Source: Ardenticatenaceae bacterium
GTDB lineage: Bacteria > Chloroflexota > Anaerolineae > Promineifilales > Promineifilaceae
DNA length: 64,000 nt
Assembly (NCBI GenBank): GCA_020634435.1
Contig: JACKBS010000006.1
Coordinates: 527,136 to 591,135 of the forward strand
Direction of reading: 5' to 3'
Position 1 is the first letter of the stretch. Every line of letters begins with the position of its first letter. The position numbers and the translations under genes were made by a program. A model generated the notes under the pieces. It saw nothing but the letters and a program-made list of their open reading frames with translations, was not told the DNA's origin and made no database searches. This document shows, piece by piece, positions 4,758-59,584 of the stretch.

Positions 4758-5221
4758 ATCAGTATGAAGTCTCTGTATCCCGGCGGATTGACGCGCCAGC
4801 AACGGCCGTTTACGGGGTTTTCGCCGATTATCGTCAGGCGCATGCGGCCGTTTTGCCCAAACCGTACTTCACCAGCATGACCGTTGAGAAAGGCGGCACT
4901 GGCGCGGGCACCGAAATCACCGTTGAGATGGCCGTGATGGGTGTAAAGGCCACCTATCACATGGTCGTTACTGAGCCAGAACCGGGCCGCGTGCTGCAAG
5001 AAGAAGACAAGACGGTGGGGTTGGTCACGACCTTTACTATTGATCCGGTAAACGATGGTCAGGCCTCGCAGGTGACGCTGTACACTCGCGCCCGCACGGC
5101 TCCCGGCTTGCGCGGCTTCATCGAAAAGCTGATCACGCCGCCGATCACTCGTAAAATTTACAATGAAGAGCTGGATTTATTGGCCGCTTACTTGAAAGCA
5201 CCGGTTTTGGCAGGTAAGTGA
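4754..5221 (+). CDS. SRPBCC (START/polyketide-cyclase-like) ligand-binding protein
   Basis: 155 aa. Start overlaps the tetR stop (ATGA). Pattern of short beta strands plus C-terminal helix typical of the SRPBCC family. Frequent TetR partner. Confidence 0.6.
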   Translation: MNQYEVSVSRRIDAPATAVYGVFADYRQAHAAVLPKPYFTSMTVEKGGTGAGTEITVEMAVMGVKATYHMVVTEPEPGRVLQEEDKTVGLVTTFTIDPVNDGQASQVTLYTRARTAPGLRGFIEKLITPPITRKIYNEELDLLAAYLKAPVLAGK

Positions 5222-5224
5222 GTT

Positions 5225-5287
5225 AAAAGTGATAAGTGAAAAGTAAAAAGTGAGCCACTTCCCACTTTTCACTTTTTACTTATCACT
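5225..5287. repeat. heptanucleotide array: 4 x NNAAGTG followed by 5 inverted units NNNCACT (hairpin-forming; bidirectional terminator position)
   Basis: AAAAGTG ATAAGTG AAAAGTA AAAAGTG | AGCCACT TCCCACT TTTCACT TTTTACT TATCACT, exactly 7-nt phased, between convergent stops 5221 and 5293. Confidence 0.75.
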
Positions 5288-5292
5288 TCGCT

Positions 5293-7108: not shown

Positions 7109-7160
7109 TGTGAAGTAGTCACTATTTTGTGTCAACTTATTTTAGGACTTGACATCCCCT

Positions 7161-7188
7161 TTTTACTTATCACTTTTCACTTGTCAGT
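7161..7188. repeat. heptanucleotide array, 4 units NNNCACT-type (same family as 5225-5287)
   Basis: TTTTACT TATCACT TTTCACT TGTCAGT immediately right of the IS insertion point. Confidence 0.6.
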
Positions 7189-13074: not shown

Positions 13075-14433
13075 TTAAATCTCCCACCGCTTGCGTTCGT
13101 TTTCATACTGTTCGGGGCTGTCGAGGTCGCGCAAGATATCGTCGGTGGGGACTGGTACCAGGTGTAGCTGATCGGCGTGGCGGTGCAGGAGGGTGCGCGG
13201 CGCATCGCCGGGAGAGAGAGCTAGCAGCTCGGCAAAATGGCGGCGACCAATCAGCACCGGATTGCCACGTTGCCCGGCAAAAATGGGGGCAATCAGGTGG
13301 CCATCTCTTTGCCAGTACGCTTCTAGCAGCAAATTCATCGTCTCTGGCTGGACCATTGGCTGGTCGGCCAGCAGTACCAAAACGGCCGTTACCGATTCAT
13401 CCAGCGCGCGTACGGCCGTTTGCAGCGACGAGAGCATTTCTCCCGCAGCATAGCCTTGATTATGTAAAGTTTTAGCACCGGCATTTTGCGCGATTTTTGC
13501 CACGGCTTCAGCTTCGTGTCCGGTGACGACGAGATATTGGTATACGGCCGTTTGCTGCACATTGCGCAGCGTTTGCCCCAGCACGGTGGTGTCGCCCCAG
13601 GGCAACAACTGCTTGGTTGTCAGCCCCATTCGTTTGCCCTCGCCCGCGGCCAGGATAACGGCGGTGACGCGCCGATGCACCTCGCGCACGGGCTGATCCG
13701 TTCTTGTCGCCCCAATCACTACTTGCTCAATGCGCGGCGTTTTCAGGAGCTGTTGGGCAATCTGGCGGGCCGCGGTAAGCTGAACGGCCGTTTCGACCTT
13801 GTTGATAAACGGCACCACCCGCGCCCCGTCGGGCACACCCTTTAAGCCCCCCTGTGGATGGGCAATCAAACGCGCCACTTCGTTCACCGACAACCGTTCA
13901 CCGATCGCCGAATCCAGCAGTTCAGCCGCAATCTCTGGCCGATGGGTGATTTCGGTGAAACGGCCGTCCAGCGCATCAATCCCTACCACTGGCACCACCA
14001 ACGTGCTGGCGGGTGGAATCACTGGCTCATGTGGGGCGGGCGCTTTAATGGGCCGCATTCGCGAGCCATCGGCTTCAACGAGCACAAAATCAACGTCTGG
14101 TCGGGCTAGCCATGCTCCTGGCAATTCTGGCGGCACCCCCACCGCCTTGTCGCCTGCGACTTCACCCACGACCAGACAGATGCCAAATTGATCCAGCGCT
14201 GCACCAATTTTTTTCTCTGCGTTCTTGGCGTCCTCTGCGGTAAAAAAAATCACGGCCTCTGACCGACTCATCTGCGCGGCAAAGATGCGCGTGGTGGTAG
14301 TGAGGATGCGCCTACCGGGCAAGGCCGCACCCAAAGCAAACAGCAGGCTGGTCTTGCCGCCGCCGCCGACAAAAGCAATCAGCTCGTTCTGGGGCTGTAA
14401 GTTAAACGCGGTGGGCAGAGTGAAGCGGCTCAT
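13075..14433 (-). CDS. fusion protein: YqeC-family selenium-dependent hydroxylase accessory domain + MocA-like molybdenum cofactor cytidylyltransferase domain
   Basis: N-terminal LIAFVGGGGKTSLLFALGAAL (YqeC P-loop-like). C-terminal VTAVILAAGEGKRMG..KQLLPWGDTTVLGQTL ... LLADQPMV (MobA/MocA NTP-transferase). Confidence 0.75.
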   Translation of the reverse strand: MSRFTLPTAFNLQPQNELIAFVGGGGKTSLLFALGAALPGRRILTTTTRIFAAQMSRSEAVIFFTAEDAKNAEKKIGAALDQFGICLVVGEVAGDKAVGVPPELPGAWLARPDVDFVLVEADGSRMRPIKAPAPHEPVIPPASTLVVPVVGIDALDGRFTEITHRPEIAAELLDSAIGERLSVNEVARLIAHPQGGLKGVPDGARVVPFINKVETAVQLTAARQIAQQLLKTPRIEQVVIGATRTDQPVREVHRRVTAVILAAGEGKRMGLTTKQLLPWGDTTVLGQTLRNVQQTAVYQYLVVTGHEAEAVAKIAQNAGAKTLHNQGYAAGEMLSSLQTAVRALDESVTAVLVLLADQPMVQPETMNLLLEAYWQRDGHLIAPIFAGQRGNPVLIGRRHFAELLALSPGDAPRTLLHRHADQLHLVPVPTDDILRDLDSPEQYENERKRWEI

Positions 14434-15290
14434 GACTGTCGGTTCAGGTGGGTGAGGATGGCTTCCAGCACGCCGCCGCCAATGGCCAGCGCTTTTTCGG
14501 AGATCGTGAAGCAGGCGTCTACATCGGCCCGGGCATCGAGATCGCCAATTTTGAGACCTGCGGAAACGGCCGTACCCGGCGCAATCAGCCCACGCAGCAC
14601 ACCAGCAAACGGGGCGGTAATTAGCTCACCCGCCACATCGCCAATGAGATCACCCGCCTGAACCAAATCTCCAATATCCAATTTCCAATCTACCGTGCCT
14701 GTTGCCGGGGCGCGCAGCACACGCTCCGCACCTTTGCCGCCAATAATGCCCGGTGTGCCGGTGTTGGGAATGGCCGCACCTTCCCAGATGACCCGCCCCA
14801 AGGTATGTCCGCGCATCGTCTCGATGACGGCGTGGCAATCGACGCCAGCCGTAAAGCCCGGCCCCAGCGCAATCACCAACTCAGCCTGGTCGGGACGGGT
14901 GTCGATGTTGCGCTTGGCCATGCGGGCGTCGATGAGGATCGGTATTCGGTGGTCGGTGGTCGGTGAACCGTAATCAGTCAACCGTTCACCGATTACGGAT
15001 AACCGATTACCGATTACCGGCAGCTCCGGAGCGACAAGGACGGGAATTCCGCCAGCGTAGGCCAGGGTCAACGCTTCATCGACTGTTTCCACCCGTTGGG
15101 CTTGGAGAGACTCGATTTGAACCTGACCTTCGCGAACGGCCGTTGCCAGGGCCACTTTCCGCCGCACGACCAGCGGCTGCGGTAGTTCCAGCACGATGAG
15201 GGGGAAGCCTGCCTGGTGCAAACGGTAAGCCACGCCGGTAGCCAGATCACCACCGCCGCGCAGAATTACGAGGTGTTGTGAGAATAACAT
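14430..15290 (-). CDS. YqeB-family selenium-dependent molybdenum hydroxylase system protein
   Basis: HLVILRGGGDLATGVAYRLHQAGFPLIVLELPQPLVVRRKVALATAV matches the family N-terminus. Stop overlaps the downstream start (ATGA). Contains a heptamer-array insert. Confidence 0.7.
   Translation of the reverse strand: MLFSQHLVILRGGGDLATGVAYRLHQAGFPLIVLELPQPLVVRRKVALATAVREGQVQIESLQAQRVETVDEALTLAYAGGIPVLVAPELPVIGNRLSVIGERLTDYGSPTTDHRIPILIDARMAKRNIDTRPDQAELVIALGPGFTAGVDCHAVIETMRGHTLGRVIWEGAAIPNTGTPGIIGGKGAERVLRAPATGTVDWKLDIGDLVQAGDLIGDVAGELITAPFAGVLRGLIAPGTAVSAGLKIGDLDARADVDACFTISEKALAIGGGVLEAILTHLNRQS
14943..15019. repeat. 11-unit heptanucleotide array (NNNNCSG: TGGTCGG, TTCACCG, ATTACCG...) inside the yqeB-like CDS
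   Basis: TATTCGG TGGTCGG TGGTCGG TGAACCG TAATCAG TCAACCG TTCACCG ATTACGG ATAACCG ATTACCG ATTACCG. Encodes PVIGNRLSVIGERLTDYGSPTTDHR. Confidence 0.85.
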
Positions 15291-23320: not shown

Positions 23321-25564
23321 CTAGCGATGTATGCCAACTTCCTGCAATTTAGCTACAACGCGGTCGGGGGTGAGGGGGATTTCATCGAACCAGACGCCGG
23401 TGGCATCGTGAACGGCCGCGACAATGGCGGGGGCCAGCGGTAAAAAGGGCATCTCGGCCATGCCGCGCGCCCCCCACGGGCCAATTGGGTCCGGCACTTC
23501 CATGATGACCGACTGCACAATCTCCGGCACATCTTTGATGCCGGGGATCAGATACTGGCTGAGGAACGGGTTGAGGATACGGCCGTCTTTCACCTGCAAA
23601 TTTTCCATAATCGCATAGCCATGAGCCTGCACCACCGCCCCTTCAATCTGACCTTCGATGAGCATCGGATTGATTGCCTTGCCCACATCATTGGCGCAAA
23701 CTACTTTGTCCACGCGAATGTGGCCGGTTTCGATGTCCACCGTCACTTCCACCGCTTCGGCCACGTAGCCGTAGGTGAAGTTGGGCATGCAGGCACCAGT
23801 TTCCGTGTCGTACGGCTGGGTGGCGGGGGGCACGTAGCGATAATGGGCAATCGCCGGGCGTTCTTCGTTGGTCCAGGCGGTGAGAGCGGCCTCGGCTGCG
23901 CCGCGAATGGAGTTGCCCGCCATCCACGTCATGCGGGAGGCAGACGTGGAGCCAGAGTTGCCGCTGCTGGCCGTGTCGGACATATCTAGCTCAACTAGGT
24001 CGATATCCACGCCAACGGCCGCTGCCGCCATTTGACGGAAGGCCGTATGCGCTCCCTGGCCCACATCAGCCCCGGCGTGGCGCAGCACCACGCGCTCGAT
24101 TTGCGTTTTGCCGTGCAGTTCAATGATGGCCTCGCACTTTTCCGGCGCACCAAAGGAGAAACCCACGTTCTTAAACGAGCAAGCAATACCGCGCCCTCGG
24201 CGCAGCGCATTTGGATTGCCGGGCAGTGATTGAACGCTGTTAAACGAAGACTGTTCACCGTTCACCGCTAACCGTTCACCGTTCACCGGCCATTTCGCTT
24301 CGGCGGCACACCGTTCCACCACCTCAGCCATGCTGATGCCAGGTGGGGGCGGGGTTTGCACCGTCAGCAAGCTGCCTTCGCGCAGCACGTTTTTTAGGCG
24401 AATCTCGACTGGGCTGAGGCCCAGCGCTTCGGCCAGTTTGTTCATCTGTGTTTCGGCGGCAAAAGCGCCTTGGGGTCCGCCAAACCCGCGGAAGGCACCG
24501 CCGGGCACGTTGTTGGTGGTGATGGCGTAGCTGTCGATATAGGCGTGGGGGATTTCGTACGGGCCGGTGACCATGAGGTGGAAGTTGCCCAGCACTTTGG
24601 GGCTGGTATAGGTGTAGGCTCCGCTGTCCATGTGGACCGTGGCGGAAACGGCCGTAATCTTCCCCTCTTTTGTTGCCCCCCACTTCGTATAAACCGTGGC
24701 CTGGTGCCGCTTGTGGTGGCCCAAAATACTCTCTTCGCGCGTCCAGATGATGCGCACCGGACGGTCAATGCCGCGCTCATGCAGGCACTGGGCGGCCAGG
24801 CCCAGCACAATTTGCAAGGACATATCTTCCTTGCCGCCAAACGCACCGCCGATGGCCGGGTAAATGATGCGGACTTCTTCTTCTGGCAAATCGAGCGAAT
24901 GGGCCACCTGCTCGCGGTCTTCGTGGGCCCACTGTCCGCCAATTTCTACCGTCACGCGTCCTTTGTCGTCGATGTAGCCCACGCCCGCTTCGGGCTGCAA
25001 ATAGGCGTGTTCCTGGAACGGCAAATGGTACGTGCCTTCGATGATGACATCGGCCTCAGCCCAGCCGGTTTCCATGTCGCCTTTGCGAATCTGGAATTTC
25101 TTGAGCATGTTGCTGCCGTGCCAGGGCTGGATGATCACTTCGTCCTTCAGTGCCTCTTCCATGGTGCCGACGATGGGCAGCAATTCCCAGGTAATTTTGA
25201 TGAGGCTGCGGGCTTTGGCAGCGGCCGTTTCCGTCTCGGCAATGATGATGGCCACATGATCCCCTTCCCAGCGGCTAACGTCGGCATGGGGATTGCTGCT
25301 GTTCAGGCCCACCAGCACCGGCTGGTCAGGCACGCCGAGGCCGTAGCCGTTCACCGGCACGTCCTTGGCGGTGAGGATCGCCACCACACCGGGCACCGCT
25401 TCAGCGGCGGAGGTGTCTATCGACAGCATACGGGCATGGGGCTGGTTGCTAAACATGACCTTGCCATGCAGCAAATTTTCTGGCGTGATGTCACCGGGGT
25501 ACAGTGTTTCACCCGTGACTTTGCCGGGGGAGTCTACGCGATAAACAGATTCGGACTTGAGCAT
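23321..25564 (-). CDS. xanthine dehydrogenase-family molybdopterin-binding large subunit
   Basis: 747 aa. a/b-hammerhead N-terminus (GKVTGETLYPGD, AVPGVVAILTAKDVP), GGAFGGKE, FRGFGGPQG, and GQIEGAVVQAHGYAIME blocks typical of the aldehyde oxidase/XDH family. Confidence 0.9.
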   Translation of the reverse strand: MLKSESVYRVDSPGKVTGETLYPGDITPENLLHGKVMFSNQPHARMLSIDTSAAEAVPGVVAILTAKDVPVNGYGLGVPDQPVLVGLNSSNPHADVSRWEGDHVAIIIAETETAAAKARSLIKITWELLPIVGTMEEALKDEVIIQPWHGSNMLKKFQIRKGDMETGWAEADVIIEGTYHLPFQEHAYLQPEAGVGYIDDKGRVTVEIGGQWAHEDREQVAHSLDLPEEEVRIIYPAIGGAFGGKEDMSLQIVLGLAAQCLHERGIDRPVRIIWTREESILGHHKRHQATVYTKWGATKEGKITAVSATVHMDSGAYTYTSPKVLGNFHLMVTGPYEIPHAYIDSYAITTNNVPGGAFRGFGGPQGAFAAETQMNKLAEALGLSPVEIRLKNVLREGSLLTVQTPPPPGISMAEVVERCAAEAKWPVNGERLAVNGEQSSFNSVQSLPGNPNALRRGRGIACSFKNVGFSFGAPEKCEAIIELHGKTQIERVVLRHAGADVGQGAHTAFRQMAAAAVGVDIDLVELDMSDTASSGNSGSTSASRMTWMAGNSIRGAAEAALTAWTNEERPAIAHYRYVPPATQPYDTETGACMPNFTYGYVAEAVEVTVDIETGHIRVDKVVCANDVGKAINPMLIEGQIEGAVVQAHGYAIMENLQVKDGRILNPFLSQYLIPGIKDVPEIVQSVIMEVPDPIGPWGARGMAEMPFLPLAPAIVAAVHDATGVWFDEIPLTPDRVVAKLQEVGIHR
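24254..24288. repeat. 5-unit heptanucleotide array TTCACCG TTCACCG CTAACCG TTCACCG TTCACCG inside the Mo-subunit CDS
   Basis: Encodes PVNGERLAVNGEQ on the minus strand. Same unit family and orientation as 14943-15019. Confidence 0.85.
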
Positions 25565-58445: not shown

Positions 58446-59552
58446 ATGGAAAATGCCAGGTCCATTCAAGACGCCTTGCTCCGCTGGTGGGACGCCGACC
58501 ATGCCGACTTGCCCTGGCGACGCAGCCAGGACCCCTACGCCATTTGGGTGTCGGAAATCATGTTGCAGCAGACACAAATCGCCACGGTTATCCCTTACTT
58601 TGAGCGGTGGATGGCGCGTTTTCCCACGGTGCACGCGCTGGCCGAAGCATCGCTGGATGATGTGCTGAAGCTTTGGGAAGGGCTGGGCTACTACAGCCGC
58701 GCCCGCAATTTGCATGCGGCAGCCAACATGGTGATGCAGGATTGGAACGGCCGTCTCCCCCGAACCGCCGCTGATTTGATGAAACTCAAAGGCATTGGCC
58801 GCTACACCGCCGGAGCCATTGCCTCGATAGCCTTCAATGAACCAGCCCCCGTATTGGATGGTAACGTCATCCGCGTCCTTAGTCGCCTGACAGATTTGCC
58901 TGACGACGTGACCCAAACCAGCACGAAAAATGACCTTTGGCAGCTGGCTGAGCAGCTTGTGCCCACAGACCGTCCCGGCGACTTCAACCAGGCGCTGATG
59001 GAATTGGGGCAGCAGCTTTGTCTGCCTGCCAAGCCGATGTGCCTGCTGTGCCCACTATCGGCCCACTGCCTGGCGCGGCAGCGTGGCACACAGCTAGAGC
59101 GTCCCGTTCGGCCACCGCGCCGGCGCACGCCGCACTACGATGTTGTGGCCGGAATCATCTGGCAAAACAAAGCTGAAACTGGCACTTCCACCGGCAAATT
59201 TTTGATTGCGCAACGGCCGTTTGACGGACTACTTGGCGGTTTATGGGAATTCCCTGGCGGCAAGCAGGAAGCCAACGAAACACTCCCCCAAGCTCTGGTG
59301 CGTGAAATTAAGGAAGAGCTGGCCATAGAAATCGGAGTGGCTGACTTTGTCACGCAGGTGAAACACGCCTATACCCACTTCCGCATCACCTTGCACGCTT
59401 TCCATGCTTGGCATGCAGATGGCCAGACTCAGCACCTTGGCGTCGCCAATCATGCCTGGGTCACCCTCGCCGATCTAGACAGTTATGCCTTTGCCGTTAC
59501 CGACCAGAAAATTATCGCCGCACTGCGTGAGTGGGTGCACGGTGATCGGTAA
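58446..59552 (+). CDS. mutY: A/G-specific adenine DNA glycosylase
   Basis: WVSEIMLQQTQ, LWEGLGYYSRARNL, GIGRYTAGAI (HhH-GPD), Cys cluster CLPAKPMCLLCPLSAHC, and a NUDIX-like C-terminus GLWEFPGG. Confidence 0.9.
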   Translation: MENARSIQDALLRWWDADHADLPWRRSQDPYAIWVSEIMLQQTQIATVIPYFERWMARFPTVHALAEASLDDVLKLWEGLGYYSRARNLHAAANMVMQDWNGRLPRTAADLMKLKGIGRYTAGAIASIAFNEPAPVLDGNVIRVLSRLTDLPDDVTQTSTKNDLWQLAEQLVPTDRPGDFNQALMELGQQLCLPAKPMCLLCPLSAHCLARQRGTQLERPVRPPRRRTPHYDVVAGIIWQNKAETGTSTGKFLIAQRPFDGLLGGLWEFPGGKQEANETLPQALVREIKEELAIEIGVADFVTQVKHAYTHFRITLHAFHAWHADGQTQHLGVANHAWVTLADLDSYAFAVTDQKIIAALREWVHGDR

Positions 59553-59584
59553 ACGGTGAATCGGCCACCGATTACCAATTACAA
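59540..59584. repeat. heptanucleotide array in inverted arrangement (CGGTGAT CGGTAAA CGGTGAA | GCCACCG ATTACCA ATTACAA) spanning the mutY stop codon
   Basis: Same unit family as 14943-15019 and 24254-24288. The last four mutY codons and the TAA lie inside the array. Confidence 0.7.

Follow-up and report, generated by a model that had tools for sequence, protein, structure and literature searches.

We analysed a 64,000-nt stretch of DNA from an Ardenticatenaceae bacterium (contig JACKBS010000006.1, positions 527,136 to 591,135; hereafter the window) and found, within yqeB, a gene for a selenium-dependent molybdenum hydroxylase maturation protein, a palindromic pair of heptanucleotide arrays with the potential to fold as a predicted hairpin. 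Eleven phased 7-nt units fill positions 14943-15019 on the minus strand (77 nt) and correspond to residues ~91-115 of the protein, VIGNRLSVIGERLTDYGSPTTDHR. We think it probable that this is palindromic heptanucleotide repeat DNA resembling the short tandemly repeated repetitive (STRR) sequences of cyanobacteria, lodged in frame in a permissive, disordered loop of YqeB, where selection keeps the frame open and free of stop codons and the repeat otherwise behaves as DNA. Repeat DNA of this kind is best known from cyanobacteria; the array looks like a tolerated instance of it, and not like a new functional system.

Two inverted heptamer arrays inside yqeB

The eleven phased units described in the initial annotation can be read directly from the plus strand, where they run from 14943 to 15019 as TATTCGG TGGTCGG TGGTCGG TGAACCG TAATCAG TCAACCG (first six) and TTCACCG ATTACGG ATAACCG ATTACCG ATTACCG (last five); the in-frame, low-complexity peptide quoted there, PVIGNRLSVIGERLTDYGSPTTDHR, equals the actual translation of the yqeB open reading frame (ORF). 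On the coding strand the array begins with the six units GGTAATC GGTAATC GGTTATC CGTAATC GGTGAAC GGTTGAC and ends with the five units TGATTAC GGTTCAC CGACCAC CGACCAC CGAATAC. Adjacent identical units number two at most, and Tandem Repeats Finder reports just the two purest stretches, 14946-14965 and 14988-15019. The period-7 signal is nevertheless far above chance: self-match at 7 nt is 0.729 over the 77 nt, against a background of 0.246 +/- 0.057 in the 64 kb, and a scan of periods 2 to 15 over all 77-nt segments of the window gave no higher value. Self-match within the array is 0.667 at 14 nt and 0.607 at 21 nt; in the same scan, periods other than 7 and its multiple 14 reached 0.554 at most. 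The periodic zone can be extended to about 14934-15026.

The units had been taken for one head-to-tail array, and in this respect the description had to be changed. An inverted-repeat search resolved them into two arms of 36 nt each (14947-14982 and 14984-15019), 1 nt apart and 78% complementary. In the orientation of the gene, the 5’ arm (14984-15019) reads GGTAATC GGTAATC GGTTATC CGTAATC GGTGAAC and encodes VIGNRLSVIGE, and the 3’ arm (14947-14982) reads GATTACG GTTCACC GACCACC GACCACC GAATACC and encodes TDYGSPTTDHR. The second is roughly the reverse complement of the first, so that the arms share the unit type NGTNAWC and its complement, and the insert has two unlike peptide halves, SVIGNRL and TDYGSP/TTDHR, because the two arm orientations encode them. 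The DNA of the array has a predicted fold of -20.8 kcal/mol (z = -3.6), including a perfect 9-bp stem that pairs 14960-14968 with 14984-14992. Hairpin potential is retained in eight other long alleles of the same site in relatives, with z = -2.5 to -7.8. The lowest value belongs to the allele of locus L002, in which the unit variants of one arm are matched, in mirrored order, by complementary variants in the other, for a stem of 23 bp.

Some relatives’ arrays carry an additional piece of 28 nt at the apex of the palindrome, CGTACGCGAAGCGGTCGCGAAGCGACAT (CGTAC-GCGAAGC-GGTC-GCGAAGC-GACAT), in either orientation. It contains GCGAAGC twice, a heptamer known to form a DNA mini-hairpin of great stability. 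The piece occurs at L169:10340-10385, L170:4665-4700, L171:600-640 (inverted) and, in diverged form, L002:10340-10375; in a search of the window and 171 homologous loci it was found only in the yqeB arrays of these four, which lends no support to the idea that it is a dispersed element.

The array lengthens a loop of YqeB

The host gene (14430-15290, minus strand, 286 aa) matches TIGR03309 along its full length, with 315.5 bits against a cutoff of 220 and with residues 8-280 covering profile positions 1-255 of 256, which confirmed the earlier assignment as yqeB-like; Pfam has no family for YqeB. The closest homolog, 99% identical, comes from a metagenome-assembled genome (MAG) assigned to Anaerolineales, and the nearest relatives as a group are from MAGs of Anaerolineales, Ardenticatenaceae, Promineifilaceae and Ca. 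Leptofilum. Directly downstream, and overlapping yqeB by 4 nt, lies a yqeC-mocA fusion gene (13075-14433, minus strand).

We defined the loop as what lies between two conserved motifs, PVLVxP and DARM, extracted it with the help of MAFFT alignments, and measured it in 160 loci from genome and metagenome collections. The loop of the window’s YqeB has 32 residues. It has 14 in nearly all distant homologs (other Anaerolineae, Clostridia, Treponema, Synergistaceae and one deltaproteobacterium) and 11-13, encoded by DNA without a period-7 signal, in Acidimicrobiia, Gemmatimonadales and the nearest array-free Chloroflexota; the 13-residue form is ELPQFDRPIGVVV. The comparison shows that the array is an insertion, one that adds ~18-20 residues to the loop. 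The initial annotation had proposed an insertion at a loop and had named an equivalent, non-repetitive segment in unrelated taxa as the observation that would speak against it; most of the ~170 homologs from other phyla have instead the short, non-periodic loop of 11-14 residues.

In an AlphaFold2 model of YqeB (mean predicted local distance difference test score, pLDDT, of 79), a check that had been proposed, the extra residues belong to a segment of low confidence: residues 88-113, with pLDDT <50, are flanked by beta strands 82-86 and 118-121 in the N-terminal Rossmann-like domain. A sequence search of the PDB returned no solved relative of YqeB, and Foldseek matched PDB entries only to its sub-domains (the C-terminal barrel-sandwich and Rossmann-like parts), so the position of the loop is taken from the AlphaFold model alone.

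Tandem Repeats Finder also reported a match at 14666-14689 in yqeB (AATATCC, 3.4 copies). It is probably a product of chance and covers conserved residues, including the invariant W202, I206 and G207.

Stop codons are avoided, and conservation follows the heptamer

Because 7 is not a multiple of 3, successive units are read in different phases, and only some unit numbers keep the frame. Among 168 loci holding both halves of the gene, none had a frameshift or stop in the loop. The reading frame of the window’s array contains no stops, compared with three in each of the other two frames; for 22 array-bearing loops taken together, the reading frame again contains none and the other frames 31 and 14. 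Two left-arm units of the window’s array, GGTTATC and GGTTGAC, fall in the phase in which unit positions 3-5 form a codon; next to them stand GGTAATC and GGTGAAC. Where a unit would have supplied TAA or TGA in frame, the triplet has become TTA or TTG. We tallied 46 left-arm units from eight long alleles. Where T-N-A falls in frame, unit position 4 is a base other than A in 11/11 units, against 9/35 in the other phases. As far as sequence comparison can establish it, this avoidance of in-frame TAA and TGA shows that the array is translated.

The same 46 units were used to ask what is conserved. Variability over unit positions 1 to 7 was 0.57, 0.04, 0.04, 0.43, 0.04, 0.20 and 0.02, while variability over codon positions was flat (0.18, 0.17 and 0.22). 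Selection on the protein is disfavoured because third codon positions show no relaxation. Conservation that is blind to codons and specific to heptamer position therefore suggests that the array is maintained as DNA, and not through selection on the peptide.

The loop is a hot spot for unlike heptamers

Relatives whose YqeB is 63-85% identical have heptamer arrays in the same loop, built from differing units. The loop holds (TTACCAT)4 in L001, (CCTCATC)5 in L005, (TCGTCAC)n in L009 and L012, (CACCCGC)3 + (TCACTCG)4 in L010, (CCTTCTG)n in L008, CTSGCCA units in L006 and AGTWATC ... GATTACT in L002. These alleles show that the yqeB loop, to the extent that it is sampled by the collections, is a heptamer hot spot across a Promineifilaceae-like clade.

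Loop lengths range from 13 to 51 residues and form a ladder. In a census of 121 proteins, 28 had loops of 13/14 residues, 7 of 20/21, 11 of 27/28, 24 of 33/34, 6 of 40-42 and 2 of 49. For 67/121 loops, (length minus 13) mod 7 is 0 or 1, where 29% would be expected, a figure that is descriptive, without a formal test, because the sequences share ancestry. Each 7-residue step corresponds to 21 nt and so to three heptamers, the increment expected from the frame argument. The initial annotation had reasoned that only certain unit numbers keep the frame, and both this ladder and the mutated TAA and TGA units bear that reasoning out. It had further suggested comparing unit number among strains as a sign of slippage; among the relatives, lengths do vary by steps of about 7 residues, but 0/168 loci are out of frame.

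Differences between close alleles are modest. The array is unchanged in a strain that matches the window at 98.4% outside the loop; in a 95% relative, it differs by 14% substitutions and one 3-nt indel. Indels among close alleles measure 3, 6 and 24 nt, all multiples of 3. Long and short alleles can nonetheless separate sisters: P0003 (long hairpin) and P0025 (short, (ACCATTT)3), whose yqeB loci are L164 and L165, are 92% identical outside the loop, and P0004 (long) and P0032 (short), L161 and L163, are 94% identical. In the latter pair, identity is 97% over most of yqeB and 76% in the 66 nt immediately 5’ of the loop. This divergent block suggests that alleles have been exchanged by recombination; recurrent identical deletion as the origin of the short allele is disfavoured, as the block has the pattern of recombination.

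A second mosaic block lies in yqeB alignment columns 648-780 (~residues 176-219 of the window’s YqeB), where P0003 and P0004 are 69% identical, compared with 85-93% elsewhere, and P0003 and P0025 are 98% identical. As read from the alignment, it indicates recombination within yqeB that would be independent of the loop.

Other heptamer arrays in the window

Three consecutive RGTNAWC units (<=2 mismatches) gave 16 matches at 4 places in the 64 kb, where 0.06 would be expected: in yqeB, in the gene for a xanthine-dehydrogenase-type (xdh-type) molybdopterin subunit, in yqeC-mocA and at 59534-59561. Tandem Repeats Finder reported six arrays of period 7 or 14 in the window.

Two of these places, besides yqeB, are coding. 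The 747-aa molybdopterin subunit (23321-25564, minus strand) contains, in frame, (GGTGAAC)2 GGTTAGC (GGTGAAC)2 at 24253-24288 on the minus strand, and the stretch 24239-24287 encodes VNGERLAVNGEQ. Its middle unit, GGTTAGC, removes an in-frame TGA. Other heptamer-type peptides occupy this loop in L001, L002, L018 and L169, and distant homologs are shorter. In yqeC-mocA, a four-unit segment in the YqeC domain, GGCGATC GGTGAAC GGTTGTC GGTGAAC (13882-13909, minus strand), encodes AIGERLSVNE; relatives have a heptamer-like sequence of variable length at the site, for example VLSVIGDRLAVVGERCSVVGDRL in L003.

The remaining arrays are wholly or largely intergenic. A palindromic array of (AGTGAWA)n followed by (TWTCACT)n lies at 5221-5288, exactly between two convergent ORFs. 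Its long hairpin has a predicted fold of -18.7 kcal/mol (z = -4.75) and may serve as a bidirectional terminator. An array of the (AGTGAWA)n / (TWTCACT)n type is found at 7159-7186. The array at 59534-59580 consists of GGTGCAC GGTGATC GGTAAAC GGTGAAT, then ACCGATT ACCAATT; its 5’ end overlaps the last codons of a plus-strand ORF ending at 59552, and its hairpin is weak (z = -1.25).

Origin and maintenance of the yqeB array

We propose that the array would have been seeded once, in an ancestor of the clade, and that its later turnover would reflect replication slippage, template switches from arm to arm and homologous recombination between lineages. Selection would be confined to an open, stop-free frame; the insert peptide would have no role of its own, and maintenance would take place at the level of DNA rather than through the protein.

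A hairpin that is itself selected would account for several of the same observations. Its arms could act in DNA or mRNA, as a translational pause, as a stability or processing site in the yqeB-yqeC-mocA transcript or as a protein-binding cruciform, with the peptide as a by-product. All nine long alleles fold significantly despite diverged arm sequences, the mirrored variants of L002 reach a 23-bp stem (z = -7.8), conservation ignores codons and follows the heptamer, the array diverges more slowly than synonymous sites, and intergenic arrays of the same type lie at gene ends. However, many relatives have hairpin-free arrays of a single orientation at the same site, such as (TTACCAT)4, (CCTCATC)5 and (TCGTCAC)5, and sister lineages differ in whether their allele is long or short. 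There is no clade-wide conserved sequence, and no U-tract or other recognisable signal. On this balance we consider a functional hairpin unlikely. Transposition into the loop, in frame, of a mobile palindromic element like a miniature inverted-repeat transposable element or a Rickettsia palindromic element (RPE), as opposed to growth by slippage, seems to us an improbable origin as well. Its attraction is the palindromic architecture and the position in frame in the loop of a conserved enzyme gene, which recalls RPEs (PMC10969869); the presence/absence-like dimorphism between close relatives would also fit, as would the 28-nt piece nested at the apex of some alleles in either orientation, with its two GCGAAGC mini-hairpins. 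Yet a search of the 64-kb window located the arm sequence at this locus alone, the other arrays having just the unit type in common with it; at the yqeB array itself we saw neither a flanking direct repeat indicative of target-site duplication nor terminal inverted repeats distinct from the array. The short allele, moreover, is itself a heptamer array and not an empty site, and the number and order of units vary continuously.

Two further explanations assign the array a role in expression or in the protein. As a phase-variable contingency locus, it would shift the frame by gain or loss of one 7-nt unit and so switch off YqeB and the translationally coupled yqeC-mocA, a proposal that draws on the 7-nt unit not being a multiple of 3 and on the 4-nt overlap of the two genes. 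We find this scarcely credible given runs of two identical units at most, the absence of frameshifted or interrupted genes among the 168 homologous loci, the identical array of the 98.4% strain, the 95% relative that differs by substitutions and a 3-nt indel only, and indels that are all multiples of 3. A linker or interaction loop selected for its peptide within the clade would explain why the long-allele pattern SVISNQL...ITDYR recurs in many relatives and why the array decays more slowly than the neutral rate. Against such a function, variability tracks heptamer position with no relaxation at third codon positions, other lineages have unrelated loop peptides (SSLVTRH, PSSLIPH, TADGRP), and the region, 13-51 residues long, is predicted to be disordered; we hold a functional peptide to be very unlikely.

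Several points also weigh against the tolerated, STRR-like repeat that we favour. The window’s three coding arrays all lie in one functional gene set, which random colonisation does not predict. The arrays of long alleles diverge by 0.15-0.25, less than the third codon positions of the rest of yqeB (0.33-0.48). Between lineages whose third-position divergence is 0.27-0.46, the short allele shows only 0-4 differences in 39 sites, and is thus nearly invariant where synonymous sites come close to saturation. A purely neutral loop should drift faster, so that a constraint of some kind, homogenisation or a recent spread by recombination is at work; homogenisation through slippage or arm templating, selection on the hairpin and recombinational spread are inseparable with these data. 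The loop may also have been seeded repeatedly and independently instead of once in an ancestor. Surface exposure of the insert is predicted from low pLDDT only.

Arrays inside conserved enzymes provide natural read-outs of such repeats: stop avoidance reports translation, codon-blind conservation that is specific to unit position points to maintenance at the DNA level, and the clade-wide hot spot with its length ladder reports turnover. In practice, such inserts create low-complexity peptides like SVISNQL / ITDYR, by which the annotation, alignment and structural modelling of proteins from Chloroflexota MAGs can be misled.

Comparison with known repeats

The cyanobacterial STRR1, STRR2 and STRR3 have the units CCCCAGT, TTGGTCA and CAACAGT, and a single plus-strand unit of the yqeB array, AGTCAAC (14976-14982), is a rotation of the last. 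To our knowledge, the origin of bacterial heptanucleotide repeats has remained unexplained since the STRRs, and the repeats are regarded as intergenic; the STRR heptamers of heterocystous cyanobacteria were reportedly described by Mazel et al. in 1990. The resemblance to STRRs noted at the outset holds for the form of the repeat. Both consist of tandem 7-nt units in many dispersed arrays, sometimes as inverted pairs, with unit types that may be similar, and STRRs occur, as do the arrays here, alongside a highly iterated palindrome in a filamentous bacterium. It does not extend to membership in the cyanobacterial repeat family. The closest relatives of the host are Promineifilaceae, and it belongs to Chloroflexota (Ardenticatenia; Promineifilales), not to the heterocystous cyanobacteria. 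The unit in the window has the consensus NGTNAWC, relatives use many others, and the yqeB copy is intragenic and, by the stop avoidance described above, translated.

STRRs and an over-representation of heptamers in bacteria are established (PMC4692102), and a general excess of heptanucleotide simple sequence repeats in bacteria was reported by Mrazek 2007, as cited in that paper. The GGGAATC/GGGGAYT repeats of Xanthomonas and Nostoc (PMC4692102) share with the present arrays extensive variation in length and sequence among related strains at conserved loci, and some are inverted repeats; the window’s arrays differ in not being G-tract repeats, and three of them are coding. Within Chloroflexota, Chloroflexus aurantiacus has a heptamer satellite family, (GATAGRA)n (PMC6749651). 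These satellites come from the same phylum and form genome-wide, heptamer-derived families whose origin is ascribed to replication slippage, but they belong to another class and have other unit sequences. The Chloroflexus and bacterial heptamer surveys describe scattered arrays; palindromic arms, stop avoidance and hot spots in coding frames are not among the features they report. A literature search, of incomplete journal coverage, on iterated palindromes and heptanucleotide repeats in Chloroflexi or Anaerolineae returned the Chloroflexus satellite survey alone, and no account of translated palindromic heptamer arrays at recurrent loop hot spots in Chloroflexota.

RPEs are selfish palindromic repeats that occur in frame in protein-coding genes (PMC10969869). 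What they share with the yqeB array is a palindromic repeat that sits in frame in a conserved metabolic gene and is translated as an additional segment which the fold can accommodate. RPE copies, in contrast, are ~150 bp long, fall into defined families and encode a conserved peptide, whereas the insert described here stacks 7-nt units variably, follows no fixed sequence and has no identical copy elsewhere in the window.

A highly iterated palindrome accompanies the arrays

The initial annotation had remarked on a palindrome like the highly iterated palindrome HIP1 of cyanobacteria. A highly iterated palindrome is indeed present, though of another sequence: ACGGCCGT has 119 copies in the 64 kb, where base composition predicts 1.3, and AACGGCCGTT has 55. 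HIP1 proper, GCGATCGC, with 3 copies against 1.2 expected, is not enriched, and a palindrome census showed ACGGCCGT in its place. The pairing seen here thus differs from that of STRRs and HIP1 in its palindrome, which is ACGGCCGT and not GCGATCGC. No description of the ACGGCCGT palindrome in Chloroflexota was found in a literature search that did not cover all journals.

The density of ACGGCCGT is 1-3.5 per kb in loci of the Promineifilaceae-like clade, and its median over all 171 loci is 0. Period-7 arrays number 12.5 per 100 kb in ACGGCCGT-rich loci, which belong to this same clade, versus 2.4 elsewhere; arrays of other periods are equally frequent in both (19 and 17). Heptamer arrays and ACGGCCGT might both come from one DNA-level maintenance process in Promineifilaceae, such as sequence-specific nicking, repair or gene conversion, although we rate this as unlikely. 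If it were so, a single process would give rise to palindromic heptamer arrays, keep them homogeneous and drive them into permissive protein loops; the loops of yqeB, yqeC and xdh would be recurrent targets and not passive survivors; and the process would be convergent with, or shared with, the one behind the HIP1-plus-STRR pair of filamentous cyanobacteria. Heptamer arrays are paired with a highly iterated palindrome here in a second filamentous phylum, and the significance of this co-occurrence would be greater if it reflected one mechanism shared with filamentous cyanobacteria.

Copies of ACGGCCGT occur across the whole window, with example sites at 13382, 13412, 13544, 13784, 13960, 14566, 15136, 15487, 15527 and 16233.

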